Shown here piece after piece: positions 20,301 through 61,693 of a stretch of 64,000 nt of DNA. The stretch's first letter is position 1. Every line of letters begins with the position of its first letter. The position numbers and the translations under genes were made by a program. The notes below the pieces were generated by a model. The model saw only the letters and a program-made list of their open reading frames with translations. It did not search any database and was not told the origin of the DNA. Source of the DNA: Mytilus edulis (lineage: Eukaryota); the NCBI RefSeq assembly GCF_963676685.1, contig NC_092350.1, positions 25,668,001 to 25,732,000 on the forward strand. Direction: 5' to 3'.

Positions 20301-23300
20301 TAAAGGCAGTGAGGTCCTTAATACAAATCAGAATTAAAAAACTGAATGGGTCCATCAATGCCCATGCTACGTCAATTTTTTAAAGACCCAAATGTTGCTA
20401 AACACCTATCCGACCTCCATGATAAATATGTTGTTGTCCCCACAGACAAAGCCCCAAATAACATCGTTTTTGTCTGTAAAAGTCATTACATTAATTGCTT
20501 GATAAACGAATTAGGTATAGACAATTCACTTGGAAACTCAACATATACCCTCACGACACTTACCAAAGAGGAAATCCTGGATAATCATAGGTCTGTTCTT
20601 TGTTCCTTTGGTATTTCAACCAAAGATGAAGAACTGGATCTTCCATCACTGTATTGGATACCTAAACTACATAAGTGTCCTTACAAACAGCGGTATATTG
20701 CTGGGTCTTCCAAGTGCTCCACAAAACCTCTTTCTAAATTATTAACATCCATTTTATCAGCAATCAAAGACGGGCTTCAAAGTTATTGTGAAACTGCCTA
20801 TTCTAGAGGTGGCGTGAATCAGATGTGGATACTTAAAAATTCCAAAGATCTTTTAGAGTACATACAATCTAACTCTCTTTCATCTTGTAACAGTATTAAA
20901 ACATATGACTTCTCTACTCTTTACACAAGTATTCCACATTCCAAACTTAAAGACAAATTAAAAGAGTTGGTATTACTTTGCTTCATAAAAAAGAATGGCC
21001 AACGTAGATACAAGTATCTTGTCTTAGGGAGGGATAAATCCTACTTTGTAAAGAATCACTCTGATTCAAACAAAAAATTCTCTGAAACCGATATTATCAA
21101 GATGCTTGATTTCTTGATTGACAACATATTTGTTACGTTCGGAGGACGTGTTTTTCAACAGACTGTCGGCATACCAATGGGAACAAACTGTGCCCCTCTA
21201 CTTGCTGACTTGTTTCTTTATTATTATGAGGCTGACTTCATGCAGGAACTTCTTAGGAAGAAAGATAAGAAGTTAGCAATATCCTTTAACTCTACTTTCC
21301 GCTATATAGATGACGTTCTTTCACTAAACAATTCAAAATTTGGTGACTATGTGGAACGCATCTATCCCATCGAATTGGAGATAAAGGATACTACAGATAC
21401 AGTTAAGTCAGCTTCATATCTTGACTTACATCTAGAAATTGACAATGAGGGTCGGTTGAAGACAAAACTTTACGACAAAAGAGATGATTTCAGCTTTCCA
21501 ATTGTGAACTTTCCATTTCTAAGTAGCAACATTCCAGCAGCACCTGCATACGGGGTATATATCTCTCAATTGATACGATATTCCCGTGCTTGCATTTCCT
21601 ATCATGATTTTCTTGATAGAGGGTTACTGCTCACAAGGAAGCTATTAAATCAAGAGTTCCAAATGGTGAAGTTGAAATCATCCCTTCGTAAATTTTACGG
21701 ACGCCATCACGAGTTGGTTGACCGTTATGGAATAACCATTTCACAAATGATATCGGATATGTTCCTCACGTCGTAACTACAATTCCCTTCCCTTTCATGA
21801 ATTTGACCTACCGAATTAGACTATTTACCGGATTTGTAATCACATAAGCAACACGACGGGTGCCGCATGTGGAGCAGGATCTGCTTACCCTTCCGGAGCA
21901 CCTGAGATCACCCCTAGTTTTTGGTGGGATTCGTGTTGTTTATTCTTTAGTTTTCTATGTTGTGTCATGTGTATTATTGTTTTTCTGTTTTTCTGTTTGT
22001 CTTTTTCATTTTTAGCCATGGCGTTGTCAGTTTGTTTTAGATTTATGAGTTTGACTGTCCCTTTGGTATCTTTCGTCCCTCTTTTATAGGAAAGACTCCA
22101 CCCCTCAACTCAACAAAGAATTCACCACAAACCTGAAAAAAGCATGTGTGGTCATATTGATGAAGACACATTTAAGTATTTAAAACATGAAAATTCAAAG
22201 CCATCTTCTGCCCGAAATACATAAAGTCAATAATCCAGGTAGACCAATTGTTTCCGCCAATGACCACCATACAGAGAAAATATTAGAATTTATTGACTTT
22301 CATCTCAGACCACATGTAGAACATTTACCATCCTATATACAAGACACCAACACATTATCTTAAGAAAATGGAATCTTTGAAACCTCTCCCACCTGAAACG
22401 ATCCTTGTCTCGCTTGATTTTACCTCCCTCTATACTAACATCCCCATGACGATGGAATTGAAGCATGTAGGGAAGTCTGGAACTCTCGTAACACCTGACA
22501 TCCACCATCTGAATGTCTCATCCAGCTTCTAACTTTGGTATTGCAATGCATTAACTTCACATTCAATGGTGAACACTTTCTCCAAGTTAATGGAACATCA
22601 ATGGAAACAAAGATGGCCCTGTCTTATGCCAATATTTTTATGGGGAAATTAGAACAGAGAATTCTCAATTCTACTCTTTATCAACCCCTCTCTTGGTTCC
22701 GATTTATAGACGATATTGACATGAAATGGGATAATACTGAACAAGAACTAAATTTGTCCATTCAACATGCCAACGATGCCCATCCCTCAATAAAATTCAC
22801 ATATGAAATCTCTGACTCTCAGATCACATTTCTTGACACTACAACAAAAGTGAGGGATGGAAGCATATTTACAGGTATGTATTGCAAGCCCACAGACAAA
22901 TATCAATATCTATCTCCTTTGAGTTGTCATCCTCAACATTGCACCAAGAGCATTTCCTACAGCGAGGTCATACGATTAAAAAGGATTTGCTCCATCAACG
23001 ATATTGCAAAATAAAACGACTACAAGAACTTCGCAGTCACATAAAACATCGAGGCTACAAAAAAGATAAGACATTGATAAAGGTTTGTCTCGTGCTAACA
23101 ACATCAGCCGAGATGAACTTTACATTATAAAGACAGAAAGGTCAACAAGAGGATGCCTTTTGTGTTGACTTACCATCCACAATTTGACAACTTATCACAC
23201 CTAATCCGCGAAAGTTGGAAAGAAATCAATTAACAGCCTAAACTATCGAAGATCTTTCCCGAGCCTACTATACTGGCTTTCCGTAGGCCCAAAAGCCTTA

Positions 23301-29300: not shown

Positions 29301-32300
29301 AAAGATAGTCTAGAAAACTTTCAATGCTATTTTTTTATTGTTTCTGTTAATCTTTCTAGAAAATTCATTGAAAAATGTAAAATAACAAAAATTCCTAACT
29401 CCAAGGAAAAGACCCTTATCAAATTGCAAAATCAAAAGCTAAAACACATCAATTGTCATATTCATAGTCATGACTTGGTACAGGCATTTCCTAATGTAGA
29501 TAATTGTGGGCTTACATGCTAGCTAAACCCCTTATATGACAGTCATATAAAATTCCATCAATTTGACAAAAATCTGTGTACAAAACAAAATGACATAATA
29601 GGTAAAAATGTCAAAAATTGGTACAGCAGTCAACAGTGTTATAATCTTAATCACTATGAAAATAAACAAATTTATCAACAAAGAAAATCAAAATGGTATA
29701 TATAATGAGCACATATGCAAAACAAAACAAATAAGGATACCAAACAATTACCATAACACAATAGCACAATGGGGGATGTATAAGTACCGAGGACCAGGAC
29801 GGTTAATTGGTAGTCATATTGTTGATTGTTGAATATAAAAAATAAGGAGATGGGATATAATTGCCAATGAGACAACTCTCCATCAGGGAACAAATGACAT
29901 AGAAGTTAACAATTGGTTTACCGGACGGCGTTCAACAATGTTTCTTTTATTTAATTGAAGTACATGTATAGCCCGTAGGTATTATAAGTCGTCTATGTCA
30001 CGGGGTTTGTCCCTCATGTTGTATGATGTGACAGAAGAATATATAAACGTACTTAGTTATAATCTCCTTTTCATTTATTATTTTTGTAGTATGCATTCGT
30101 GGGATAAATTCGCACGTTGTTTTTGTATATATAATAATTGCACTTACATTTGGTTTTTTATAATACGTCTCCATCTTATGTTCAATACCAAGTAGGTTCA
30201 ATTATTCTAGATTTTATCCCAATGGGTGACATGATCGAACGTTCAATTTTGTCTCATATCTGAAGGGTTACACGTAATGACCTATGTAAGAATCGTTGTT
30301 TGAATTTGAAAGAATTTCTCATTAACATTTTTTCTCATACCGAGTTTCCGGATAACAATGAAATAATGAAATTTTCCTCAAAATTTCAATAATAACGTCT
30401 TTCATATAGACTTTTTTCAAGTGTTTCATATTCAAAGACATGTAACTGTAGTTTAAGTTCTATGTTGATCAAGCAATGACATTTGCGTGCTTGTTCCGGT
30501 GTGTTGATTCCCAATTGACTTTAATCCTCTTGTGTTTCTTCCTCATTGATTTTTACTCTCTTGTGTCACTTCCTCGTTAACTTTAACTCTCTTGTGTCTC
30601 TTCCTCGTTGATTTTTACTCTCGTGTGTCACTTCCTAGTTGATTTTAACTCTCTTCTGTATCTTCCTCGTTGACTTTAACTCACTTGTGTTTCTTCATTG
30701 TTGATTTTAACTCTCTTGTGTCTCTTCCTCGTTGACTTTAACTCTTTTGTGTCTCTTTCTCATTGACTTTAATTCTCTTGTGTCTCTTCTTCGTTGATGT
30801 TTACTCTCTTTTGGGTCTTCCTCGTTGATTGTCACTCTCTTGTGTCTCCTCCTCGTTGATTTTTCTCTCTTGTGTATCTTCCTCGTTGATTTTTACTCTG
30901 GTGTCTCTTCCTCGTTGATTTTGACTCTCCTCTGTATTTTCCTCGTTGACTTTAACTCCCTTGTGTCTCTTCCTCGTTGACTCTATTTCTCTTGTGTCTC
31001 TTCTTCGTTCATTTTAACTCTCTTTTGTGTCTTCCTTGTTGATTTAAACTCTTTTGTGTATCCTCCTCTTTCACTATAAATCTCTTGTGTATCTTCCTCA
31101 ATAATTTAACTCTCTTAATTGTGTCTCTTCCTCCTTGATTTTTACTCTCTTCTGTATCTTCCTAGTTGACTTTATCTCCCTTGTGTCTCTTCTTTGTTGA
31201 ATTTAACTCTATTGTGTCTCTTCCTCGTTGACTTTAACTCTCTTGTGTCTCTTCCTCGTTGACTTTAACTCTCTTGTGTCTCTTTCTCGTTGACCTTTAC
31301 TCTCTTATGTATCTTCTCTGTTGACTATAAATCTCTTGAGTCTCTTCTCCGTTGACTTAAACTCATTTATGTCTCTTCCTCATTGACTTTAATTCTCTAG
31401 CGTCTCTTCCGTGTTGACTTTAACTCTCTTGTGTCTCTCCCTCGTTGATTTTAACTCTTGTGCAGCTTCCTCGTTGATTTTAACTCTTTTGTGTCTCTTC
31501 CTTGTTGACTTTAACTCTCTTGTGTCTCTTACTTGTTGAGCTTAACTCTCTTGTGTCTTTTCTTTGTGGACTTTAACTCTCTTGTGTCTCTTCTTTGTTG
31601 ACTTAAACTCTCTTGTGTCTCTTCTCTGTTGAATTTAACTCTATTGCGTATCTTCTTTGTTGATTTTAACTCTATTGCGTATCTTCCTTGTTGATTTTAA
31701 CTCTATTGTGTCTTTTCTTTTTTTACTTTAACTCACTTGTTTCTCTTTTTTGTTGACTTTAACTCTCTTGAGTCTCTTACTCGTTGACTTTAACTCTCTT
31801 GTGTCTCGTCCTCGTTGACTTTAACTCTCTTTGTGTCTCTTTTTTGTTGACTTTAACTCTCTTGTGCCTTTTCTCTGTTGACCTTAACTCCCTTCGGTCT
31901 CTTCCTCGTTGACTTTAACTCTCTTGTGTCTTTTCTTTGCTGACTTTAACTCTCTTGTGTCTCTTCCTTTTTGATTTTAACTCTATTGTGTCTTTTCTTT
32001 TTTTACTTTAACTCTCTTGTGTCTCTTCCTCGTTGATTGTAACTCCCTTGTGTCTCGTCCTCGTTGACTTTACCTCTCTTTTGTCTTTTCTCTGTTGACT
32101 TTTACTCTCTTGTGTCTCTTCTTCGTTGGTTGTAACTCTCTTGTGTCTTTTCTCTGTTGACTTTAACTCTCTTGTGTCTTTTCTCTGTTGACTTTAACTC
32201 ACTTGTGTCTCTTCCTCGTTGACTTCTTTAATTCTTTTGTGTCTCATCCTCGTTGTTGACTTTTGTCTCTTTCAATGTATAAATATACTTTAATTTATGA

Positions 32301-44412: not shown

Positions 44413-45350
44413 AACAAGAGGCTGTCACAACGACAGCAAACCGGATTTATTAATATTTATTTGTGTCCTGGCAATATCACAAGAACCATTACTGATGAAT
44501 GGTGAAAGTGAAAATCGTCAATATCAAATTTGACCTCCATTTTGTCATCAGTAACAACATATAAAAATTTCAAAAGCTTTGGTTGAATGGTTCATGAGAA
44601 AATGCACGGACACGACTGGAAACACCATTTTTCAATCTTTCAAGAACCATAACTCCTGAACGGTAAAAGTCAAAATCGTCATTATTGAACTTGACCTCTA
44701 TTTTGTCATCAGTAACAATATATTAAAATTTTGGAAGTTTTGGTAAAACAGATCATGCGTAAATGCACGGACACGACTGGAAACACCATTTTTCAATCTT
44801 TCAAGGACCATAACTCCTGAACGGTAAAAGTCAAAATCGTCATTATTATACTTGACCTCCATTTTGTCATCAGTAACAACATATTAAAATTTGGGAAGCT
44901 AAGGTAGAACAGTTCATGCGTAAATGCACGGACACGACTGGAAACTCCATTTTTCAATCTTTCAAGAACCATAACTCCTGAACGGTAAAAGTCAAAATCG
45001 TCATTATTGAACTTGACCTCCATTTTGTCATCAATAACAACATATTAAAATTTGGGAAGCTTAGGTAGAACAGTTCATGCGTAAATGCACGGACACGACT
45101 GGAAACTCCATTTTTCAATCTTTCAAGAACCATAACTCCTGAACGGTAAAAGTCAAAATCGCCATTCTTGAACTTGACCTTCATTTAGTTGTCAGTAACA
45201 ACATATTAAAATTTTAAAAGCTTTGGTTGAACGGTTCATGAGTTAATGCACGGACAACATTTGACAAAATGTTTGATTGCCGCCCGCCCGCCCGCCGTAC
45301 ATCCCCAAAATCAATAACCGACATTTTTTTCACAAAAATCCGGTTAAAAA
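44413..45350 (+). mobile_element. Helentron/HINE-type element with an internal 161-bp tandem array
   Basis: Starts AACAAGAG; subterminal inverted AACCGGATTT / AAATCCGGTT; ~4.5 copies of a 161-bp unit; (CGCC)n microsatellite; the empty site is visible in the sister repeat at ~46520. Confidence 0.8.
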
Positions 45351-45499
45351 TCATACAAGACTAACAAAGGCCAGCGGCTCCTGACTAGGGACAGGCGCAA
45401 TAATGCGACTGGGTTAAACATGTTTTTTTTAGATCTCAACCCTCCCCTTATACCTCTAGCCAATGTAGAAAAACAAACACACAACAAAACACACAGTTA

Positions 45500-45756
45500 C
45501 AGCCGATTGCATTAAATGTGTAGGAAAAGGTAGTATCTTTGGTTAGCTTGCTTGCTAGCTGAACCTTGAAGTCATTACTATCCTTCTTTCGAAGTAGCCT
45601 ATTCCTAAAGACAGATATATTGGTTATCTGTTGGACTAGTCTACTCTTAAAGGAGGGTAGCTTACCTAACCTTATAATGACTTCATGGTTTCGCTAGCAA
45701 GCAAGCAAGCTAACCAAAGTTAATACCTTTACCTACACACTCAATGCAATCGGCCG
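45500..45756. mobile_element. 257-bp fold-back MITE with TA target duplication (Tc1/mariner-type)
   Basis: Arms CAGCCGATTGCATTAAATGTGTAGG / CCTACACACTCAATGCAATCGGCCG, pairing continues toward the centre; TA at 45498 and 45757; empty site GTTAAACTC at ~46671. Confidence 0.85.
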
Positions 45757-47577
45757 TAAACTCAATTTAAAAGAAGTCCGAGTCCGATGTCAGAATAGAA
45801 CAAAAGAAACTAAACAAAATGACAATGATACATAAATTAACAAAGGGATACTAGCAGTAGTTATTGACATGCCAGCTTCATGTCTCATTTACACTGATTG
45901 AAATATTATGTCTTCATCATATCAAGCACAATCACTTCCGTTATGGGTTTAGTATTATACCATCATAACATATAAGAGAAGAACAAAACGCATATCATGC
46001 CAACAACTAATTTTAGAATAAATGTGTTTATTTCTGATGCAAAGACCCTATAGATGAATCAATATTAAAGCCAAAATATCCTATCTTTAATGGCCTAACT
46101 ACAGTATCGTAACTATATCTCTTCTTAATAAGCCTGTAGAGGTCGTTCGATTTATACGTTTACGTATACGCATCTGGGAGAATATGCTCAAATAATTTCC
46201 GTGATCGAGATTGATACCCCATGTAACATTTTGAAAGAATAACGGGAATCAAACTTCGGGGCACTAATCAATTTACATCTGTGTACTTCTGAATGCCTAA
46301 TTTCAACTTAATATATAAAATTTAGAAAGGGAATGGGTGATGTGTCAAAGCGACAACAACCCGACCATAGAGCAGACAACAGCCGAAGTCCTCCAATGGG
46401 TCTTCAATGTAGCGAGAAACTCCCGCACCCGGAGGCGTCCTTCAGCTAGCCCCTTAAAAAATATGTATACTAGTTCAGTGATAATGGATGTCATACTAAA
46501 CTCCGAATTATACACAAGAAACTAAAATTAAAATGCATACAAGACTTACAAATGCCAGAGGCTCCTGACTTGGGACTGGCGCAAACATGCGGCGTGGTTT
46601 TTTTTAGATTTCACACCTCCCCTATACCTCTAGCCAATGTAGAAAAAACAAACACACAACTATACGCAAGGTTAAACTCAGTTTAAAAAAAGTCCGAGTC
46701 CGATGTCAGAATAGGTAACAAAAGAAACTAAACAAAATGACAATGATATATAAATCAACAAAGGGCTACTAGCAGTTATTGACATGCCAGCTCCAAACCT
46801 CTGGTTATAGAATAAATGTGTTTATTTCCGATGCAAGGACCCTATAAATGAATCAATATTAAAGCCAAAGTAAAGCATCTGGGAGAATATGCTCAAATAA
46901 TTTCCCTGATCGAGATTAATACCCCATGTACCATTTTTAAAGAAAAACGGGAATCAAACTTCGGGGCACTAATTAATTTACATCTGTGTACTTCTGAATG
47001 CCTAATTTTAACTTATAATATATAATACATAACTTATTGATATTTAGCATTGAAATAACAAAAGGGTACATAAGCCTTAAGTCTATGTTGCATATGAAAG
47101 ATCTTTATTTGAGCTGCGTCGGATAGAAATCGACATAATGCAAGTGCACTCATACATGTACATGTATAAGTGATTGATTGCATTTGTAATATTCTATTAC
47201 AAAAGAACAGATGAATTTTGGTCTGTTATGTAGGGTTCGTATATCAGCTAAATTTTCTAATAGTTACAGACTTTGCATAGATGTTTTATTCAACACAAAA
47301 TAAGTTAACAGATGTTCTGATTTTCATTGGCATATTAAGGTCGATTTCTAAGCGACGCAGCTCATTTCATTGGGAACTACAACAATTAAACACTGGGTTT
47401 TTTTCCAGATTGGTAATAATTTTGTTTTACAAAAAAAGGGAGGGGGTATCACTTACGAGTAGTACGACATATGACATTGATCCAAATTAATCAAATAGTT
47501 CACCGATTATATTCGTTTTAGATGATAATTTTAGCATATTTCCCTAGTTGCATATCGGATACTTTGGGTACGTTTTA

Positions 47578-47755: not shown

Positions 47756-48247
47756 TTTTGATCTCTATATGAATACATTGAAAATGAGTTAAAATCTTCT
47801 AATGTATAATTGGGCTTTAAATGTGGTTTTGTTATATTAAAGATAACCATCAAAATTATAAAATTTAAACTTTCTAAACAAAACAAATATTATCACCTGC
47901 TACGAAATACCTCGATGATCACTTGTGTATGGCACTACAACCAAACATTTTCATTTTTTAGGTACGTTCACAAATACAATGACATATATATAAACAACAA
48001 TAGTGAATGGGTCACGCTCAATATAGAACACCATATTTATGATCAACATTTAGTAAATGGTTCGATGTCGGCTAGACAGATAAATAGGTCAATTAAATAC
48101 CTATAGTTTGAATTCCTTCTTTGGCGTTTCACCTGACTGTTGGCAGGTAAGTTATGCATACTAGTTTTTAATTTGGTGGAATGTTAATGAATTGCTTTTG
48201 TTTTCTGCTGATGTCAAAATCTAGGATGATAAATTGGATATGTATCA

Positions 48248-48925
48248 GATACAATACAAAGGTAACAAAGAAACAGGCCGGTACATTTAACAACCGTTGC
48301 CGGATAGTTTTTCTGCATGCACGAGTAGTCAGGTCAAGGTCCGATGCGCTAGCCGAGGACCATGACCTGACTACAAGTGCAGAAAAACTATACGGCAGGT
48401 TGTTTCCGGCCTGGTTTTTTTTGTTACTTTTGTTTTGTATCTTCTTTGTACGACGTTTTAAGGAAGAAGTATTACATTTTACAAGACTGAACATTTGAGA
48501 GCCTCAGAAACTTAAATGGCCTCAAATCAGTGAATGTAAGTTATAGAATAAACACATTTTTTTCATTTTCCTTCAACGGATTTTTTTTTCTGGAAAAGAA
48601 ATCAGGAATCTAATAATTTGATAAAAACAATAGAACCATTTCAAGTATAAGATAAATGTTATCAAGGTTGAGACTTTTTTAAAATGCAACTTCGTTGAAA
48701 TGTAATATATTAAAGAAATATTTTAGCCCAAAATTGAGGCCTGACATAAGTTGAACGTTGTTTTTCAAGAGTTGTTGCTTATTTGGACATGTAATACACA
48801 AACACTTTTTATCTATAGTATCAATCGTGCATTGGTGAGTTGCTAGGGATTTTATCTTTTGGTGAGATTTGATTTTTATTTACATATTTCCTGTCCTTTT
48901 TAATTGAAATATAAACGTCGGTACA
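48248..48925 (+). mobile_element. Hairpin-capped non-autonomous element (Crypton-like architecture)
   Basis: Hairpin 48248-48441 with loop CGATGCGCTAGCCGAG; imperfect inverted pair TGTACGACGTTTTA (48447) / TAAACGTCGGTACA (48912). Confidence 0.55.
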
Positions 48926-51900
48926 TCATTTCTTCACTTTCAGCATTATCCAAAATTACTATTCATGTCCATGCTCCATAAAAAGGGGGAGGGGTATGTA
49001 CTTTTCTGAATATATTAACTATTTACCTTTACAACACCATCACCATATATATATATATATATATATATTTATTTTTTTTAAATTAGCACTATTTTATATA
49101 TATATACGGTATTCGAAAAATCAGGAATCATGCAGATCATTAATTTGTTATCTGCTTGACCACAGTAAATTTTTTCTCATACAATTTGGGATCAAAATAT
49201 CTTTTTTATTAGGAGAAAAACATACCCCCCCCCCTTTTTTCGTACAAATTCCATTTACACACAATCATGCGTCTTTCTTAAATCTAGGTTTGTCGTCATC
49301 TTTTAACAAATATCGCCGTATTTACTCAGTGAGTACATACAACCCTGTACACATTGTTAAGTTTTCAGACATGACAGGAACCATGTACAATATTAAATTT
49401 AAAACGCATTTTTAGATTGAAATTTTTTAACATTTTGATGAATTTTTAGATTATTTTTTTATTGTTGGTTCGTTCCCACAGAATGCCAAACAACGAGTGC
49501 ACACACTGAAATGTCTCAACTTCTTTAACCATTGAGTCTATGTTGATAGTCCTTAATATAAAGCTTAATACAACTATTACATAAACTTAACATGATCCAA
49601 AAAAATGAGGTGAAGGTCAGATAAATCAAACTAGAAATACATCTACAACATGTACAAGGTATATATATACAATAGTGTCAAGAATCCAGATCATCTACTT
49701 CCTGAAATATATAGCATTTAAGAAGTTTGTTAACGCCACCGCCGTCGCCTCAATACCCATATTTATGTCGAACAGAAGTTGCATGCTCAACAAAAATCCA
49801 AGTTTAGAAAAATGAGAAGTTCTTACTGAGTAATAATAACAGTGAGTTGTATCGATTTACAATAGATGTCTGACCACATAACATAATATAACACAAACGA
49901 CTATATAAGGTGATTTAAACATAAAGTTCGGGTGTTGTGTTTGGCACTCTTGTGGAAACGACAAAAAAGAATCTCAAAATCAAGGTTAGTTTTCAGTCTA
50001 CTGAAACATAAAAAGACATTTTGATTCCTGCCATCCCTTAAAACTTGACCAGGCGCACAGGTATTTTTGTACTCACGAGAAAACTAATTGGCCGTGTAAA
50101 CACTGCCATATTTTTTAATTTATGTTCTAATTCCTTCTGAGTTAGAGGGACTCGCTTATTAGCAGATTGAAAATAGTTTATCATTGTTTTTTAAATCTTT
50201 TTTTTTTTTGTTGCATTTCCTGTCTATTTGTATAATCAACGTTTTAATTTCATTGTTGTCTGGCAATCAAAAAAAATGATACCAAAAATGCGAAATTTGA
50301 AAAACATTGATAAGCAATATTTCAATCTTCTTACCGAGTCCTTGTGCCTCAAAGAAATATATAATAATATGTACATGTAATACAATTTAATCATTGTGTT
50401 GACAGTGTATTCATATTATCATAAACGGAAGGATTATTTGGATAATTAATCATTACATTCGGGTACTTCAGTTTGTGCGATTATTATCTGCCATTTGTTT
50501 GGTAAGTAATCGGTATATAGAATGAATATTTTTTTTAAATCTAGTTATGCATGGTTTTCGTTTTGTGGGGGAGTAGGGTGTCTTATATTTTCGGTGTTTG
50601 GTGGCTGAATATTGTCTACAATCGCGTCGCTGTGAGCTCAGGCTGTGAGATGTATTTCAATCTCTTTATATAAAAAATAGAAGTTGTTGTATGATTGCCA
50701 ATGAGACAACTCTCCACAAGAGACCAAATGACACAGAAGTTAACAGTCATACTAGGTCACCGTACGGTCTGTATTTCTTGAGTACACACAGCATAGTGCA
50801 GCTAGGTGAACATTGGATCTTTGATCAAATGTTTTATATTATTCATATACCAAGGTCGATGAGTTATTAATTTAAAAAAAACATATACTGGGACTAATTG
50901 TTTACATCTATCCTATATCTGTTTAATAACTAGTATACTTGTCTGGGTCGTAAATTAGAACTTGGTTAATATGATGCCTACACGCCTCTACATAATATAA
51001 CTGATAAACCATCCATTCTAAAATTGTGTACAAAGGGAGATAGATCAAATGAAGATATTGTCGACATTTCTTTCTTTCCTTAATACAATGTAATGTTTGA
51101 CTTAGATTCAGAGCAAAAATGGTGTGATATGGCCTTGCGAGTACTTGTATTTTCAATTGGGACCATATTTGGCTGCTTGTGAATCATTTTTGCAACAGGG
51201 GATTGATACTCTTATCGTTCATGCATGGATATTGTACCTGTATTTCCCACTTCTGTATAAAGATTCCTTTCGGCTATTGTGTATCTAGGTACAAATGTCA
51301 TGAAAAGCCATGTGACGATTCTGGTAACGTTAATTATCTTACATGTGTTACAAAAACATCGGGTTTTGCGTGTGTTATAACAACAGAATAGCCATAGTCA
51401 TATTTCTGCCGGAAAAGTAACCGCTTATTTGCCCTGTTCTCATTGACGACCAAAGTGTTCCTAACAGCGGGCGGGAAACTCATTTTGTCAACGTCGACCA
51501 AAATGACACAGCGGGACAATTATAGAATCGGTGACATTAAAATATGGTATTCCATGACTATTATAGTTTAGAATTGTTGAGGAGCTTCGTATTAATGAAA
51601 ATATCACTGTGGAGGAATGGAACAAGTATATCACTACACATTTCTTCAATTTTCTCACGCTTTAGATCACCTTGCCTGGAGGTCTTGCATAAAATCTTTT
51701 GTCATTCTTTTGCGTCCACCGCCTGTAAACTTTTCCCTTTAAAGACCAAACAGCCTATTGTTTTAAATGCTCATCAGCTAACGCAACTTGGTAGTGACAT
51801 AAAAGCTCTATGACGTTGTTTCTAGCAATGAAAAAACGTCAAATTATAACGTCCTATTTCGCGTTTTTCACGGATTCCAACATGGTGTACGCTACGTAGG

Positions 51901-53557
51901 TACGCTACGTCTCCCAAGAAAAGAGGAACTATTATGCGTCGCGCTACTTTAATATCCTGTGGAGATTTAACACAAATGGACACATAAGATACTACACTAT
52001 ATATTACCTTCGTTCTAATAAAAATAATAAAATATAAATTTTTATCTCGACTTTTTGCATTTGCGCCGTTCTGCATTTCATTTTTTTTTTTATTCTTTCA
52101 CATGCGTAGATTTTGTCTTATATTTGCGTCGATCTGCATTTTATTTTTTCTTCTTCTTCACTTGCGTAGATTTTGTCTTTCGTTTGCGCCGATTGTGTAC
52201 AGGTAAGGTGAAAGGGGTTAGAAATGAATAGGCTGTTTGGTCTTTAAAATATCCTCCCAAACTGCTCAATGGGTTGAAACCAACGTGTGTCTGCTTTTTC
52301 CGTAGGATCTCAACAATAAAGTTTGTGTTTTTTGTCAAAGTTGATCAATAACATTGCTGTCTTGTCTACAGAATATAGGGGTCGAACTAAAGTCTGGTCG
52401 AAAATCTCTAAAATTAGATTAATGGTGTATGGAATGATTGTAAGGGTGTAAATATCCAAATGGCACGTGCCATCTTACCTTGACCTCCTTTTCGTGGTTC
52501 GGTGGTGAAAGTTTAGTTTTGGTGTTTCGGTCTGTTTTTCTGATTCCGTATGCAATTATAACTATATTTGGTGTATCAAAATATTTTACGATGTATGTGC
52601 AAGTCTAGCAGGTTTTATTTGACCTTCACCTTATTTTCAAGGTTCATTGTTCAATGTTATTTTTTTGTATTTTGATCCATTTTTCCTAAAGTATAAGGTC
52701 ATGTAAGTATGGGTCAGCTATATTTGGTGTATTCTGGCTTGCTTTATATGACCTTGGTCTCATTTTCTTGGATCGTGTTGATTTTATATGATACTTGTAG
52801 TAAAACTTTGCATTTTGGAACTATCAACGATCAATGGTCAGTACATCAGGCGAGACATATCAACGTGTGCTCTCTTGTTTTAGTTTTTAAAGTGAGACAC
52901 ACAAAGCAGTTGAAATATTCATTCGTTGGTAGTTTGGTGGAATTGTGCTTGATTTTCATATGTTGAAGAAATTATCTTTTAAACAGTTTAATTGAGGTCC
53001 GCATGTGACATGTCAGTAACTGCTAGTAATCCATTGTTAAATTGTGTATTATTGTCATTTTCTTACGTTAACTATTCTGTTATCAGACTGAATTTTACTG
53101 TGAGTACTGTTGTGTGTTTGTTTATTCTACATTGGCTCGAGGTATAGAGGGCGGGTTTAAATCTCACAAAACACGCTCAACCCAGACGCAATTGTTTTGC
53201 CTTTCCCAAGTCAGGAGCATCTGTTAATCTTTTTTTATTTATTGTTTTTGGAGTTTTAGTGGGACGCTCATTTTTACTGAGCTAGTACACAGTTTTCTTT
53301 AGGTGTCAGACAAACCCCGCCTCCAGACGTGGGATTTTCTTGCTGTGTTGAAGCCCGGTTGTTGGACTTCTGCTGTTATCTGCTCTTTGGTCGGGTTGTT
53401 GTCTCTTTGACACATTCACCATTTTCATATTCAATTGCATTGTTATAATTATTTGTTCGTCTTGTCTTGTGATTCAAACTCCCTTGAGCCTCTAGTTTTC
53501 TTATTTCAGCGAACTTGCTTGTCATTGACACTTTAAACTACACAGACACTAAAAAAA

Positions 53558-56500
53558 ATGCAGTCGGAACTAGAGGAGAAGAGAAAAATGTTGGCCCAAC
53601 TTGAAAAAGTTCCTCAGCCAGAATTTGAAGGAGTTTCGTATCCATCATTTAAGCCGTTTAGGAAAAAAGAAGCCAAGAATGCAATTGAAGATATAATGAA
53701 TTTCAAATCTAGAGATTCAGATATAATAATCTGCACGTATGCAAAGTCAGGTATGGAAGAATATTAGTTATGTTTTAAAATCTAATTGTGTGAACTGACG
53801 TTTGCTTCATATAGTGGTCAGGAGAAACATCTCAAACTTCACGTTTTAGAACAGATAATTCACTACTCATTTTTGTATTAAATAATGGTAGAATTTTTAA
53901 GCTAAAGCTTCAAGTGCCGGTTGTAAATTACAGGAAAAATGCAATACAAGTACGTTTCCATATATTTTTTTTTTATTAGAAACAGCTATTTGGATTAAAA
54001 ACAATTATCCTACAATTTACTTCTGGCACTTGAATGTAATAGCTTTAGTTATTTAAATCCAAATAATTTGTCTAATTTTTCATAGAAATTGACCGCGAAA
54101 TAAAAACAAAAAATAAATTGGTAGACAAAATGAAATATTCACATTAGCGCTGACTCAACAAGGAAGCGAAGTAATAGAAGACTACAAATACAATACAGAA
54201 AAAAAAAGTTTTATGTCCCTGCATGCATGATATGCATGTAGCTGATTGCAAGATAAAAACAATTATACAGAGTGTAAACTGTATATGAAATTTGGACACT
54301 CGATATAATCTGGTTTGCCGTTTTGTACTAGTTGTCTTATTTGATCATCATAATTTTCAATATTTAATTCAATAAGGGTTTTTTTAGTTTGTTTTTTTTT
54401 TTTTATAGATTTTACAAATAAGTAGGATTTATTATTTTGGACATATCATAAATCTTTGTTATGGTAAGGTGATGACAAAAAGCAATTTTCTTAATATTTT
54501 ATATTTTTTTCCAACAATCTTCTTTTAAAAAAAAATGAATTTAAAAGTTAATATTTATTAGGTGAATGGCTTTCCATGACTGATTACTATATGAATTTTT
54601 TTTTATCAATATTCTTTAATTTCAATAATATTTCAAATGTCTGATCCAAGTGAGAGAAAAAAAATACTTTCATTTTAGGAACACATTGGACTTACGAAAT
54701 AGTGAATATGTTACTGAGAAACACGACTGAATTAGACAACCAGAGCAAAATGCAAAGCATGTTAGAAGCAGTTGAAGATTTGTCTGTGCTAGAAGGTGTT
54801 CCATCACCAAGAATTATGGACACGCATTGTCTATTTAAATATTTACCAAAGCAACACAAAGAAAAAAAGGTCAAAATTGTGCACATGATTCGAAATCCTA
54901 AAGATGTATGTGTTTCATATTATTATCACTGTTTAAAAGATATGTTTATCAACTTTGATGGAACATGGGAGGAATTTTTTGAACTGTTTATGTCCGGAAA
55001 ACGTGAGTATTTTAATGACAATAATAGTGCATTGACTTGACATATCAACGATATAAGGATGAGGCTTAGAAACGGGGAAATGCGAGGCTGTGCCGAGCTA
55101 TTTCCCCGTTTCGGTCCGAATCCTTATATCGTTGATATGTCAAGTCAATGCATTATTATTGTTTATATACTGCAATCTAAAAGAGTACTTTTTCAATTGT
55201 TGTTTAGTGTGTATGTTATTATTTGATTAAAATATTGGGAAACTTCCCCTTTTATAAAAAGATCTCATATCATGCAGGCGGAGAAATTTACAGCACAATG
55301 AGATGTACATCTACCTGTTGAAACCTGCAATCGATGATAGAATAAACTAAAGTATCAACAATAAGCATAAAACATAATGATACATAGTTCGCAAACCAAA
55401 AATATTAAAAAGTGAAATATGTTTTTTTTCTTCTAAAATTGCAAAAGAAATAAGTTTGAGTCGTTGTATACTTTGGAAACAATAACAGGTTGAATAGGTC
55501 GTATGAATAATTAATTACAATTTAGGCAATTTGTATTTAAATATTCATGAGGAAAAGTGATATCAGGTCAGTGACTGTATATGACATAGAAATATACGGT
55601 CAACGCATTTTGACTGCTCAAATAGAACGAGTGCAGTATAAATTCTACTAAATGTATTTGTGGTCAACATAACTTTTCATCAACACAATGTTCATGATGA
55701 GTTGCCTTGTAACGTCATTGTTCTCGAGTAGTCACCGATTGGACTACTGGATACCCATTACTTTACTCCGGGTCCGATAACAAAAAACAATCTTAGTTTG
55801 AAATATATGTTTGTTTGACTTGGTCTTGACAGGCTGAATATTATAAAATCATAAACAAGTGCCTTCCTTATTCTTTTTGTTTCTGTTCTTTTTCTCTTTT
55901 TGTGTTCAATGAAGTGATCAACATTAATCTTTTAGTTCTGAAAGGCTACTTTAGTTAGAATCCAGTATATATTATAATTCTTAAAACTAAATAATTCACT
56001 GCAAACATATCAATAGTTTTTTTTTTTATTTCCCTATACTTTAAAGATATATCAAGGTCGATATATTTTGATGTATTTAAAAACAAAATGTATATTGTAT
56101 ACTCCATAGTGCCTTATGGATCATGGTATAACTATGCGTTAGAAATGGAACGAGCAGCAAGCGACTTTCCAGAGACGATTTTTACCTGTTATTATGAAGA
56201 TATGAAAAAGGTAGTCAACTATCTTCATAAAAATATTATGAAAACTTTTAGTGATACATGTGATAGTCATTTTTTTTTTAATATGATTTTACCGCCGTAT
56301 AAAAATTAAACGTGTATAAAACTGACAATTTCAACAGCAAGTTTTGAAGTAAGCATTTGTCAACCAATTTGAAAGACCAATCAAATCTCATAATTTTACC
56401 GTCATGAGTGATGCAGGATCAATAAGCCCTTCCGGAGCACCCGAGATCCCGGCCCGGTTTTATCTGTTGACTGGATGGATGGTCTTTCGTAGTTTTTTAC

Positions 56501-58700
56501 GTTGTCAACCTATGAGATTTGAATGACAATTTAAGTAACATAAAAGTCAGTATAAACTAACAAAAAAGGGCAGGACCGAATATAGTGACTATAAAACTGC
56601 AGGACAGAGATAACAACTGAAAAAAGCACAGTAATTTCTTTTTCATCTTAGCACCACCTCCACAAATCAAATGGTAGCTCCTAAAAGAGGTTAGGATAGT
56701 CAAAATAGAACATTACCATTACCCTCTTAAATACTTTTCCCCAACTTTCATCAACTCCAAATGAAGAAAACATGAATGCTTGGATTTAGGCTTTAGTGTT
56801 GCAGCTTTCCTCAAAATACATCTATTCAACTTTAGACTAATGAGAGGATGTGACCGGAACATTTCAGTTTTCGTTATATTTTGAACATTATTGAATGAAA
56901 AAATGAAACAACATTTCTTTTGATAATTAAAAGAAAAACAACGGATATGGGGTATTCATCCATGACACAAAATCAGTAAATGCACAACCAAAAAAATATG
57001 CCAAGAAGGAACAACGCTTTTATTGCTTCATCTCAGTCAAAGTAAGACCTCAACACTGAGCAAAAAAAAACTCTCAACTCACCTCACTTATGTTACTCCA
57101 AAATATGTTTATTTTGATAGTTATACCACCATATAAATATTAATTTTTTTTAACAACAGTTAACTTTTACAACACATTTAGGAGTAACTGACATAGTTAA
57201 TTCATGGTTTAATTTTTTTAAGGAAAATTCTAACCTATAGATCAATAGGGCGTAATTTTTGGCCAATTTTATTTTGGTCTTGACTAAGCACTACAAAATT
57301 CAGTATTTATTTCAATTAATTTTAAAGTCTAATTTACTTCTTAAGAAATTGTGTAAATATGCATGGTCAATCAGATCATATTATTTTACTTGATGTTGCT
57401 TATTTTCTCATTTCAAGTTTTCCTATTAAGATATTTATGTATTTGTAGCTATAGCTCTCTGTCGTGTTGTAAATATGTTTTCGTTGCTTTTAATAGTATA
57501 ATTAATGCTTTTTTGATAAAGTATTCATTTATTCATTAATAAGTTTAACATACGCATAAAAATACCTTTAGTTCATCCAACTTGATTATACATTATTTTC
57601 TATATCATTACTGGTCTACTCTAGGATCCTGTAAGAGAAATAAAGAAACTTGCAGATTTTCTTGGTACACCATGTACAGACGACACATTAGAAAAGATTG
57701 CCAAAGAAACATCATTTGGAAATATGCAGAAAAACAAATTTGATATCACAGTGATTGTAGATGGCAAAGGGTTCATATATCGGAAAGGTAAGTATATAGT
57801 TTGTCCGATTTGCCAATTTACGTGTTTGTGCATGTAAGATCGCCTGTACAGTTATGTTGTTCACGGTCTGGTCATCTTGAAAATGTAATGGAATTATTCC
57901 ATTCTGTTTTTTCTTTATTATTTAAGAGATTTCTGGTCTGCCATTTGCATCTTTTATCTTTGATTTTGACGCTAGACCGGTTGCAAAATGGCAAATACTT
58001 CTACTTGAGTTAGTTTATGACTAAACTGGTAAGCATGACTTAGGTATGGGCTTTCTAAATGAGGTTAGAAAGTGAAATACAGCAACTCCCAAGTGAACAA
58101 AAGGAGATGTGACATTTACGTCAATGAGACCGCACGCCAACAATATTAATACAGCAAAAAGATCTAGAAATCGGCATACAATCTTCAATAGTAGACAAGA
58201 CTGCCGGGTATCTTAAAATATGTAAAGCTTTAAATTGTCATAAGTTTACTTCAAAACAATTATCACCAATAAACCAAAGAAAAACTATAAAAGATCCGCC
58301 ATCAACAAAACATTCTTTCAACTAGCTTCTTTCTGTCTCTAAAAAAGTTTTTTTTTTAAAACTTTTTATTTACTAAATTGCAAGTACTTCAATCGAAAAG
58401 GTGCAACTGCTGTATTTGTTTCGACTAAATTCAGAAAGTTGTTAACACAAAATGGAGAAATTACTAAATATTATATAATTATGTAAATTCCTTATATTCA
58501 AAATACACACGATTTTGTCAGCTTTCTACACAAACACAGGTGGGGAGTATTCGTACCTCTTGCTTATAATAATGTTAAACTTATTTTCAGGTGAAATAGG
58601 AGATTGGAAAAATCATTTTACGGTCGCACAGAATGAGAAATTTGATGCTCAGTACAAAGAAGAAATGAAAGACAGTAAATACAAGATAACATTTGAATGA
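53558..58700 (+). CDS. Cytosolic sulfotransferase (SULT1-like), 296 aa, five coding exons
   Basis: Exons 53558-53750, 54679-55002, 56110-56210, 57625-57787 and 58591-58700 (891 nt, all GT-AG, in frame). Motifs TYAKSGTHW, PRIMDTH (catalytic His), [32 protein letters not shown]. Acceptor at 53509 implies an upstream non-coding exon. AATAAA at ~58802. Confidence 0.95.
55018..55642 (+). mobile_element. Hairpin-capped non-autonomous element (Crypton-like architecture) in a sulfotransferase intron
   Basis: Near-perfect hairpin 55018-55162 with loop GCGAGGCTGTGCCGAGC; inverted pair TATATACTGCAATC (55164) / GAGTGCAGTATAAA (55629). Confidence 0.65.
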
Positions 58701-59850
58701 AATAATGTGTATAAATTTTGCAAATGAAATTGGAAGGCTAGCCAGTTCCAAACTGTATCAGAACGGCCGAAATTGTACTATCGAGTTGTTATGGCAAGAT
58801 GAATAAATAAAGCGTATCATCTAGTTTTACAGTATTCTTTGTTAATATCAAAATTTACATGTTTGTGTGCAGAAACTTTTATGAAGAAAGCAAATGTATG
58901 TCCATGTGATTGTGTATTACACATTGTAGAACACCACCAAAACTGGGGGGTGATCTCAGGTGCTCCGAAAGGGTAAGCAGATCCTACTTCACAATCACAT
59001 GTGGCACCGTGACATACGTGAGACAAATTAAGGTATACTAGTACTGTCAATTTGAATGATATCTCTTTCTTATTGATGATTGCAGTGTTAATATTTTGAA
59101 TTTATAGTATAGATATTAGAACTAAGCGGATAGGGTGTTTAATTGAAGCACACACTGTTATTTCATCACTTATTTCCTTCTACATACTTTTAATCTACTG
59201 TAAAGTTTCTTATTTTCGCGGATGCTTTTTTCGTTGTTCTTTCTGGCCGATTCGAAATTGGATTTAGATCTTGTCATACGGTGAATGCGCCTGTCTATTA
59301 GTCCAGATGACTTTTAATAAACCTAAGTTTACCCCTCCCCCTTTTTTTCATCTTGAGGAGGGACCCAGATATTAACCCTTTCCTTGCGAAGATGATTTCG
59401 ATTGTGTACATCTTTTTATTTCGCAAAAGAATAGCCAATGGTTAATTCCCCTTAGCAGATCAAAATATATGTTTTATAACATGGCAATGAATAATTCATG
59501 AATACAGCAAATAATTCGGATGGATTGCATAACAATTTCCCAAAAACTTACCAAAAGAAAGAAATGAAGTAATATACACATTTATATACCTGTAAATGCA
59601 CAAGTTCACACACCTGAAAATATCTATCAACCTTTACTCAGTTCGAGAGACAAAATCTGTTGATATGATACAATCAAAAAGATATTGGGTATGTTTTCGT
59701 AAAATAAAATACATACAGGAAGAAATCAAATGCAATGCAATTCTCTAACCCGTAAGCGTTGCCTTCAACAAGGAACTAAAACTTGCACCTCTCTTCAAAT
59801 TCATATACACCGATATCATCGGTTTTAACGGAATTCCTTGTTAAATGTCA

Positions 59851-61000
59851 TTGTGCGGTTATGCAGTTGTAAACTTGAATTCTACTGGCTGCCTTGCAAT
59901 CTGCTAAATAACCATGTTCGCCGTACACAACCCAATCAAATTATCCCAATAGAAGAAACCTTCTTACAAAACATGTACCTGTAGCCAATCAGAAATTGCG
60001 TTGTAATATGTTGACCTTTAACCAATGTGCTCAACCTATTAACCTGAAATCATGTGTGCTATAAAAAAAAAAGTAAGGTACACGCTGTCTTGTGATAACC
60101 TTCGTGTATTGCCCTACATAAGACCAGTTGACTTGTTAGCCTGTCCGCGTGTGGAAATTTCCACTGGTTGACATCTATACATGCATGACGCAATCAATGG
60201 CTTTATCAATCTAGAGAAATTCAAATAAAATATATTTATTATACATCTCTGTATTATATCATACAAACTTAACAGTAATAACAGATTTAAAAATGGTTTT
60301 CGTCCAGAAAAAAATATAAATAAGAAAAAAAATATAAGATGGAATGAAACAAAGTGAAATGCTCCCGATCACATTAAACCCAACGGTAAATAAAAATGTG
60401 TTCGAAAACTATCAGATCTGTTCTTCTAAAAATGAAGTCATTCTTTTTTATAAACAATAGTTACGGAACAGTTGTTGAAAACTTGTGGACATTTCGATCA
60501 GCTTTACGCACATCTATATAAAAATGACCCAACACTTCATTTACTTTTAATGTGTCATACTGTTCAAATCTAGGATCCATTTTCTTTACTTTTAAATACT
60601 CCCTGAAAATAGTGGCTGCTGCTATGTTCTGCTTTATTGTTTTGTCAGCACTCATTTTCAAACGTTTTTGTTCAATTTCTTCATCACTAGTATCAACAAA
60701 TCGTCTTTTACCAGACTCCATCTTTAGTTGGCACAAAAACACATGAACTATGCACTACAAGGAAAATCAATAGATCATAAGGTTACACGATACACATTAA
60801 GAGTGAGGTCAGTGGGCGGAGTTAACATGTTAAAATTGCGAAGTGAAATCTAGGACACTTGTGTATTAAACGTTTCATTAATTATATACCTAATACGGTT
60901 AGCATAACCGCACAAAAATGTTATCATGCTTTGACCTAACTAGCATGATTATTAAGACGGAGTCGAAATAACCATGTTAGTTGGGTCAAAGCATGATAAC
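59851..61000 (-). mobile_element. Crypton-like (DUF3504/tyrosine recombinase-related) element remnant
   Basis: ORF 60461-60724(-) RFVDTSDEEIEQ...KTIKQNIAAATIFREYL...FEQYDTLKVNEVLGHFYIDVRKAD resembles the region N-terminal to DUF3504 in Crypton/KCTD1/ZMYM-like proteins; hairpin 60920-61000; perfect 14-bp inverted repeat at 59851 and 60902. Confidence 0.7.
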
Positions 61001-61693
61001 TTATAATCACGCTACATCTGTGTGCGCTGTGGTCAACATTATGATGTCAATAGACAAAGATATATAATAAGAGAAATTTACCAATAACTATACCACAAGT
61101 CTATACGACATTTCAGAAGATGAACTACTTAGACCACTCGGCTATCAGACAATACAAGACGCAATATACCAATAGGGGAGACAATAAAACTCATAACTTT
61201 GTTTCAGACACGCAACACTATTATAATACAACCAAACGAAAAGAAAAACAAACAAACAGTTTAGAAAAAATACACATAAAACTAGTCATTGAGCAACATG
61301 GCTAAAACTACGTATATGTGTGCGCATGTGCTAGGAAATGGACGTCTAAATTGCAGCTCTCAAAAACATTTGGAACTTACAGATTTTTCCACATTGATAA
61401 ATCCCGGATCTTGCTATTACATCAATATTTGGCTTTTATTTGTCATTGTGTGTATGAAAATTATCAAAATGTTTGATATTTCCTTGTAAATTAAAATGTT
61501 GTATACGTAAATTTTTGATTCACATTTGTACAGTGGCGGGAAAATTATTTTCCATCAATGTAAACAGTGTAAACCACTTCCGGTTTACTTTTTTGTTTGT
61601 TTTTGTTTTGATCGGCAAACAGAGTCTTTGTGATTAAAAAGGTAATAATATCCTATCTATCAATCCTTACACCTTATATAATATGGCTTCCTA

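Follow-up and report, generated by a model that had tools for sequence, protein, structure and literature searches.

Recombinases of the DUF3504 type are assigned to the CryptonA lineage in the relevant passages of the Crypton papers (PMC3212892; PMC13465315). The published proposal for how such elements move is an excised duplex circle (PMC3212892; PMC13565253), and a 2026 review, which assumes such a circle, notes that no experiment has ever shown Crypton transposition (PMC13565253). The words 'hairpin' and 'palindrome' are absent from the main texts of PMC3212892 and PMC13465315. No description of folded Crypton ends such as those below was found in the literature, Repbase entries lying outside that scope. 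In bacteria, recombination on a folded single strand is the route taken by attP of the CTX phage. The attC sites of integrons likewise exchange one strand with a duplex partner, and replication resolves the product (Bouvier et al., 2009; PMC2727003).

The window analyzed here, a stretch of 64,000 nt from Mytilus edulis (GCF_963676685.1, NC_092350.1, positions 25,668,001-25,732,000, forward strand), carries one copy each of three multicopy families with sharp ends, at 48242-49247, 55014-55641 and, on the minus strand, 61005-59851. One exact 27-mer of the first family (F1) occurs 62 times and one exact 23-mer of the second (F2) 440 times, with 0 occurrences of either when reversed. An earlier, sequence-only reading had proposed that three dissimilar elements share a terminal hairpin and an asymmetric repeat pair. 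The hairpins were found where that reading had put them, the common design is real, and comparison among the three elements returned no meaningful similarity (best cross-family E 0.19). The proposed layout, a 14-bp motif behind the hairpin with its inverse at the far end, holds in all three, with repeats of 9-14 bp rather than a fixed 14.

Element 1 (48242-49247, plus strand) is a doubly deleted copy of F1, a non-coding family whose full-length members measure ~1.82 kb and have no long ORF. Its hairpin (48247-48442, plus), in which one apex G.A that is intact in the family has mutated, is followed by an inner repeat (48446-48454, plus), the inverse of the true far terminus. The last 8 nt of that terminus (49240-49247, plus) remain after an internal deletion of ~300 bp, the element's second, and the host T at +8 on the far side is 49255. 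The far repeat had previously been placed at 48912, at a 465-bp spacing shared with element 2. This match is internal, lying within a degenerate inverted duplicate of the F1 subterminal region (48795-48969, ~180 bp, no strand assigned). Since the true far repeat is at 49240-49247, the shared spacing is chance, and both proposals were dropped. Element 2 (55014-55641, plus) is a complete copy of the non-coding family F2, located 11 bp inside a sulfotransferase intron. Its hairpin (55018-55162, plus) holds two tandem G.A internal loops and precedes an inner repeat (55165-55177, plus); the far repeat and terminus (55629-55641, plus) are followed by host T at +8 and A at +9. Element 3 (59851-61005, minus) is an internally deleted copy of the recombinase-coding family F3, full copies of which are ~2.4 kb long and encode the recombinase as their sole long ORF. 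On the same strand lie its hairpin (60920-61000), the apex of which is deleted here and present in full copies, an inner repeat (60902-60915) that matches the far repeat and terminus (59851-59864) at 14/14 positions, and the N-terminal remnant of a DUF3504 tyrosine recombinase ORF (60461-60721), which lost its catalytic domain through a deletion near 60491. A likeness between the loops of elements 1 and 2 had been remarked upon, and the apex is indeed common to the elements: GA, a 3-bp G/C stem, a 3-4-nt loop and GA.

The ORF in element 3 had been called Crypton-like. The remnant in the window has no Pfam match, but it corresponds to the first 79 residues of the ~480-aa F3 ORF (84% identical), and the protein of a full F3 copy scores 30.4 bits against DUF3504 (cut-off 29.7), which supports a Crypton-type tyrosine recombinase at the family level. 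Close relatives of this protein carry the PF12012 annotation. F3 has a single ORF of this type and neither a reverse transcriptase nor a DDE gene; the elements also lack the symmetric terminal inverted repeats and target duplications of DDE transposons and MITEs. The catalytic R-H-R-Y is conserved in 4/5 aligned proteins; in the exception (L118) Cys replaces the second Arg, which is kept in a sister copy (L123) frameshifted upstream. A fold search with a model of the F3 recombinase, middling in quality (pLDDT 68, pTM 0.45, five-sequence alignment), matched QRICH1 and Cre, with an integron integrase only at rank 37 (E 0.04) and no closer than Cre. Solved structures searched by sequence gave nothing below E 0.7. 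Given the DUF3504 match and what the papers state about its lineage, the elements are classed as CryptonA-type, with one recombinase-coding and two non-coding families. The ORF points away from the hairpin in F3, as had been noted, but this is a minority layout (3/16 coding families).

Elements 1 and 2 could alternatively be rolling-circle elements of the Helitron2 type, mobilized by an HUH protein, their likeness to element 3 being convergent. Helitron2, as far as the source was available, does combine asymmetric short terminal repeats beside hairpins with one-strand transfer and no target duplication (PMC3627910), and a survey of 110 recombinase loci turned up none with F1 or F2 ends. One locus (L191) was considered as the coding partner of F2 and rejected, as the hairpin there is that of a non-coding sister family, ~740 bp long. 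Against this reading, the apex, the bubble geometry and the target rule described below are common to F1, F2 and the recombinase-coding families. The subterminal repeat of Helitron2 is placed in that account just 20-30 bp from the end, compared with F1 and F2 hairpins of 150-200 nt, and its small hairpins stand at both ends, an arrangement that the mussel elements lack (PMC3627910). The RepHel gene was absent from every element read, F1 having no long ORF and F3 only its recombinase. A Helitron2 origin is thus very improbable.

The association between hairpin and recombinase extends well past the window. Where recombinase loci were selected on protein or Pfam matches alone, long hairpins lay beside 29/40 and 26/40, or 55/80 in all, with 0 in 59.7 kb of host control flanks. 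The hairpin was absent at threshold in the other 25/80 genomic loci, including a three-copy family (L205-L207). In 14/15 further families the far terminus is the inverse of the motif behind the hairpin, and in the fifteenth no far end was found; G13, whose far end was not found, was left out of the junction geometry. At single loci, repeat scores alone were no better than those of shuffled motifs, and the repeats were therefore established from multicopy boundaries, by which the link between hairpin and far repeat holds across many families. Terminal hairpins span 90-200 nt.

When the two ends are joined, the hairpin lengthens to a single stem interrupted by a small, asymmetric bubble where the crossover falls. 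Each family has one crossover point, flanked by the far repeat and by the hairpin's first arm. The bubble is 7 nt against 5 nt in 13/17 families (an offset of 2 nt between outer and inner spacer), the offset is 1 nt in 3/17 and different in 1/17; in one family the spacer carries no bubble. For the 14 extra families, crossovers were placed by eye from 2-6 copies each. Because the families are related and several consensus hairpins derive from 1-2 copies, binomial values exaggerate the independence of the counts.

The insertion sites bear out the earlier expectation of movement without target duplication. Element 2 is absent in other individuals (a 628-bp skip, one base ambiguous), with an orthologous empty site in 3/4 runs; three paralogous empty sites were found among 46 two-ended insertions. 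All show zero net bases, leaving microhomology only. Host targets are spaced at 6 bp, with the consensus Y-A-N, 6 bp, N-T-A. Host T occupies +8 in 48/60 insertions of F2, 22/22 of F3, 20/36 of F1 and 29/42 of others, and four families follow the rule poorly (3/13). The duplex junction of F2 has its T at +9, a position where hosts show T in 16/60.

The products are one-sided. The element spacer is present at left ends, at 4/6 positions or more, in 79/81 cases, the remaining two being 1-nt shifts, and at right ends, at 6/6 positions, in 0/118. Left out of these counts were 39 left-anchor reads of F2 and 6 of F3 as inner-arm or tandem, the label of the 36 tandem reads covering both classes, and 2 right ends of F2 as tandem. 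Exchange of one strand predicts the spacer only at left ends, while an unrepaired two-strand exchange predicts half each; the counts would thus fit one strand exchange and are also compatible with biased repair. Tandem and mixed junctions occur as well, and a head-to-tail junction was also present in a contig of one run. This supports the importance that the sequence-only reading attached to the head-to-tail junction, though such junctions would be explained equally by insertion at an existing right end, and neither a free circle nor a free single strand was observed.

The stems themselves are polarized. On the hairpin-first strand, mismatches number 53 G.A to 9 C.T and 22 G.T to 6 A.C, against 22 T.T to 16 A.A as a control, and G.A and G.T stay on that strand irrespective of ORF direction. 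Between F2 and a sister family, 20/66 pairs have changed on both sides while both tandem G.A loops are kept. Apex polarity at metagenome loci is 17 versus 0 among 38 distinct hairpins, and the generality of the pattern past the mussel genome rests on this count. The two strands are separated by just 0-5 kcal/mol in folding energy, the hairpin-first strand being lower in 15/18. At the level of sequence, the crossover bubble, mismatch bias and covariation are those of a predicted folded single-strand site, with an unpaired central spacer and unpaired bases specific to one strand.

A hairpin without any role in recombination, arising as a by-product of template switching or arm-to-arm conversion or else acting as RNA, would account for part of this pattern. 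Conversion can homogenize long palindromes and also yields two-sided changes, and the apex is deleted in many copies. Yet conversion should erase mismatches, and in unrelated stems the tandem G.A loops have nonetheless been kept on one strand. Host targets, moreover, copy the base of the stem. An RNA role finds little in element RNA, at a depth of 0-7 in three runs (too shallow for a strand call), or in Rfam, which gave no match. We consider a hairpin outside recombination quite unlikely.

From the observed ends, the absence of target duplication, the single crossover, a 7/5 or 6/5 bubble set against 6-bp target spacing and the mismatch bias, the best reading we infer, and a probable one, is recombination between duplex targets and a single strand folded in the manner of attC, with replication completing the event. 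Pairing of the far-end repeat with the inner repeat would create two short duplex boxes that flank the asymmetric bubble. The repeat duplex and the base of the hairpin are likely the two boxes that the recombinase would bind; a two-box site of this composition requires a folded strand. Only the hairpin-first strand would be exchanged with the duplex target, Y-A-N, 6 bp, N-T-A, and the junction would be resolved by replication. For excision, a fork or an extruded cruciform may release the strand while the donor stays on the sister chromatid, such that movement is likely copy-and-paste. An element's own right end would still be a good target, building tandem and mixed arrays. The earlier proposal that the repeat pair alone forms the site on circularization, with the hairpin as a separate signal, is not supported as written, because the repeats are 80-200 bp apart in a duplex circle and host targets, by their T at +8, mimic the base of the hairpin's first arm.

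A classical Crypton route, in which the excised circle is duplex and recombines with the target through its duplex junction, deserves the most attention among the alternatives, and we regard it as unlikely. The hairpin and inner repeat would then be accessory, whether as an additional binding site, as a cruciform enhancer or as a signal for priming, and one-sidedness would follow if the second exchange were blocked or repair were biased, as happens in strand-biased elements of bacteria. Beyond being the published proposal, this route draws on the detection of Starship circles, in the portion of the preprint concerned (bioRxiv 10.64898/2026.09.21.753150), and on Vibrio tyrosine recombinases that circularize with strand bias, according to the sections available (PMC9345347). 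The spacing of the duplex junction equals the target's 6 bp in F3, G2 and G4, and in the three 6/5 families the duplex junction lines up with the target without any shift. In 13/17 families, however, the duplex junction is 1 bp off the host register, whereas the folded 7/5 form brackets the target. A duplex circle also leaves unexplained the exact, stem-extending register of the inner repeat and the strand-specific bias of G.A and G.T.

The end anatomy specifies a cut position, a strand, a target consensus and a short folded substrate, which makes the question testable with oligonucleotides and one protein. If the folded-strand reading is true, animal genomes too make use of a mode of recombination known in bacterial integrons and the CTX phage; this would offer a testable account of how an old group of animal transposons moves and would explain hundreds of copies for a recombinase with no replication gene. 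The end rule would then help to locate Crypton ends, which the papers call hard to define, and may hint at the first recognition target of domesticated DUF3504 proteins (ZMYM2-4, QRICH1, KCTD1). A small integrase that accepts loosely defined duplex targets and inserts without leaving a scar could also serve as a tool.

Set beside described systems, the mussel elements are like CryptonA (PMC3212892; Glomhoppers, PMC13465315) in their one intronless DUF3504 tyrosine-recombinase ORF with R-H-R-Y, many non-autonomous derivatives, end microhomology and lack of target duplication. They are unlike the animal Cryptons of 2011, for which that paper reported no terminal repeats, as a description and not as a defining trait of the group (PMC3212892): 17 families here have a 9-14-bp asymmetric repeat and a hairpin. 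Their 90-200-nt hairpin, asymmetric pair of repeats and single crossover also set them apart from the published duplex-circle model. Starships too are eukaryotic elements with a tyrosine recombinase, microhomology to the target in place of duplication, an extended target consensus and an end-joined intermediate; they differ in their DUF3435 recombinase family, giant cargo and clean donor excision, as the sections at hand describe them (PMC10104507; bioRxiv 10.64898/2026.09.21.753150), and 'hairpin' is absent from the 2026 preprint. The strand-biased circularizing integrative elements of Vibrio employ a tyrosine recombinase and a one-strand circle that leaves the donor unemptied, but have four conserved genes, a fixed target gene and, in the portion of the source available, no long terminal hairpin described (PMC9345347).

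The likeness to integron attC is one of working: a diverse imperfect palindrome, two predicted boxes around an unpaired spacer, strand-specific unpaired bases and head-to-tail arrays (Bouvier et al., 2009; PMC2727003). The mussel elements are nonetheless no members of the integrons, as the protein is not IntI-like and box sequences vary by family. They are eukaryotic, encode the recombinase within the mobile unit, and lack the attC core triplet and a fixed attI; their crossover is at the bubble edge instead of inside the R box, and they have tandem G.A in place of single flipped bases. On balance, and a shade less firmly than for the folded strand itself, we favor the view that animal CryptonAs are eukaryotic counterparts of integron cassettes, which in many families and hosts would use a folded strand, an asymmetric bubble, conserved tandem G.A and one-strand exchange to move by copy-and-paste; theirs would be the first recombination site of this kind in eukaryotes.

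The three hairpins fold as the sequence-only reading had described, as a fold check confirmed, and pairwise comparison finds no alignable sequence common to the elements that carry them. Searches with the AT-rich eukaryotic DNA of the window, in an assembly of 1.37 Gb, assign each element to a separate multicopy family (40 candidates scored of 78, 376 and 1921). Element 2 (55014-55641) is an intact copy of F2, a family of ~635 bp. Element 1 (48242-49247) belongs to F1, which is ~1.82 kb long and lacks a long ORF; it has lost ~560 bp internally and ~300 bp near the far end, leaving the final 8 nt of the terminus at 49240-49247. The repeat at 48912, earlier taken for its closing end, proves to be an internal match, and the 465-bp spacing common to elements 1 and 2 is therefore chance. 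Full F1 copies and window positions 48795-48969 contain an internal inverted duplicate of the F1 subterminal region (180 bp, ~70% identity). An F1 element at locus L102 (G000:C3:104769761) has its final 55 bp turned round and placed ahead of the hairpin end, as if an inversion had taken place between the true crossover and a similar site within the element.

That these elements make no ordinary target site duplications was borne out at empty sites, which duplicate nothing. Contigs from three of four other runs skip 55014-55641 exactly, with nothing between (one base is ambiguous), and three of 46 two-ended insertions tested lie in other repeats with zero net bases, the other six matches being tandem self-matches. 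Element 2 is a polymorphic insertion; it lies 11 bp inside a sulfotransferase intron, adjoining the splice donor, with exons at 54654-55002 and about 56064-56210.

F3, represented by element 3 (61005-59851, minus strand), is ~2.4 kb long and encodes ~480 aa in full copies. The Crypton-like ORF proposed for element 3 is sound at the family level, where the full-copy ORF scores above the DUF3504 cut-off; the window copy retains 79 residues only. Profile searches add weak matches to QRICH1 and phage integrase, and a predicted structure of middling quality for the F3-type recombinase matches the QRICH1 fold best and Cre next. The residues R, H-x-x-R, H and Y align across families, and the closest named relatives, 88-94% identical, are from Mytilus. 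The proposed orientation, away from the hairpin, is found in 3 of 16 coding families; the ORF points towards it in the other 13. The recombinase domain, its catalytic residues and the behaviour of the ends class F3 as a CryptonA-type element, and the shared end design is what suggests the same for F1 and F2. Movement of the non-coding families by an HUH protein appears very improbable to us.

The end design extends well beyond the window. Among recombinase loci chosen regardless of hairpins, a hairpin of at least 100 bits lies within 2.5 kb of the ORF in 29/40 found by protein similarity and 26/40 found by a Pfam model, and 18 host flanks (59.7 kb) used as control contain none of that strength. 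Loci without one include truncated copies, single-copy loci and a three-copy family, L205-L207; this family and two single-copy DUF3504 loci that lack a hairpin (L228 and L230, with long ORFs of 496-597 aa) may have a different end type or be domesticated genes. The hairpin is terminal in 15 multi-copy families, and in 14, the only ones in which a far end was found, that end inverts the motif following the hairpin, as expected. Hairpins also accompany 30 of the 80 loci drawn from metagenomes, many of which are short or redundant and most of which share 31-47% identity with the query. Elsewhere in the window, a fourth long hairpin lies at 45497-45759; it is imperfect, has a large loop and lacks a G.A apex. 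The short hairpin at 17504-17578 consists of a palindromic unit in several copies and represents another kind of repeat. Two overlapping long ORFs at 19358-21776 (341 and 476 aa, the longer with what we take to be a reverse-transcriptase-like motif), with fragments elsewhere in the window, are probably a retroelement; 30406-32000 and 44472-45254 are occupied by tandem repeats with units of 31 bp and 161 bp.

The two strands of the hairpins are unlike. On the hairpin-first strand, 18 family hairpins contain 53 G.A against 9 C.T mismatches, and 22 G.T against 6 A.C, whereas T.T and A.A stand at 22 and 16, in families that are related and with some consensus hairpins built from one or two copies. 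The G.A mismatches come in tandem, at the apex and frequently mid-stem too; such tandem pairs are stable in DNA. Among 38 distinct metagenome hairpins, the G.A apex reads from the terminus inward in 17, the reverse in none and neither in 21. F2 has a highly abundant non-coding sister family (~740 bp; L383-L392 in G000, L191:710-888; 1861 first-look candidates), which keeps the F2 boxes and G.A loops on a different stem. Between the two families 20/66 pairs have changed on either side alike, whereas both tandem G.A loops are kept; this amounts to a single comparison between two lineages. That the hairpin is a by-product, or serves as RNA, strikes us as very improbable.

When the far end is joined to the hairpin end, the far repeat pairs with the inner repeat directly behind the hairpin and lengthens the stem, a consequence of the repeat itself. 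In the stretch from this repeat duplex to the base of the hairpin, the outer strand exceeds the inner by 2 nt (7 vs 5) in 13/17 families and by 1 nt in three (F3, G2, G4), and equals it in one (G3). To the right of insertions, host T stands at +8 from the crossover in 48/60 (F2), 22/22 (F3), 20/36 (F1) and 29/42 other ends, often followed by A; four families fit poorly (3/13). Inspection by eye gives T at +8 followed by A at +9 in 4/4 distinct flanks of a 7/5 metagenome family (L304-L308), and T at +8 in 7/9 for the F2 sister family. In left host DNA, position -2 agrees with the element end and position -1 is unconstrained. The host target can be read as a pair of half-sites flanking 6 bp; a 7/5 duplex junction is therefore one base too long and the inner strand one base too short, and in 7/5 families the folded form alone would bracket the target.

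The element spacer (at least 4/6 positions) is found at 79/81 left ends, the remaining two being one-base shifts, and whole at 0/118 right ends, where five, including a tandem junction, match at 5/6 positions. An internal pattern served to select half of the F2 set in this count. By established tyrosine-recombinase logic (PMC2727003), complete two-strand exchange with unlike spacers would place the spacer at the right end of half the copies unless repair were strongly biased. A duplex circle with the hairpin as accessory is a reading we hold doubtful. Head-to-tail junctions occur in F2, F3, G4, G5 and G6 and in a contig of one run. In two other hairpin families (L062:1470-1530, L087:1470-1530) F2 has inserted precisely on the right end, giving mixed head-to-tail arrays; arrays can therefore be extended when an element inserts at a right end already in place, and such junctions are no proof of free circles. 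The best reading, which we consider reasonably probable, is that the recombination site of the element would be a folded single strand that exchanges one strand with a duplex target; replication would resolve the junction, and the donor copy would survive on the sister chromatid.

Among known repeats, Eulor repeats have hairpin-tail shapes. No description of this end structure for Cryptons was found in the available parts of PMC3212892, PMC13465315, PMC13565253, PMC5753468, PMC9345347, PMC2727003, PMC10104507, PMC3627910, PMC7175516, PMC11872487 and bioRxiv 10.64898/2026.09.21.753150; Repbase, Repbase Reports, subscription journals and bioRxiv supplements, outside this scope, may mention a terminal palindrome. 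The end design is real, widespread and apparently undescribed, in a transposon group that is itself known, and it points to a specific mechanism that is cheap to test. The element is not a member of the integron system, yet by sequence criteria its end would work much as an attC site does.
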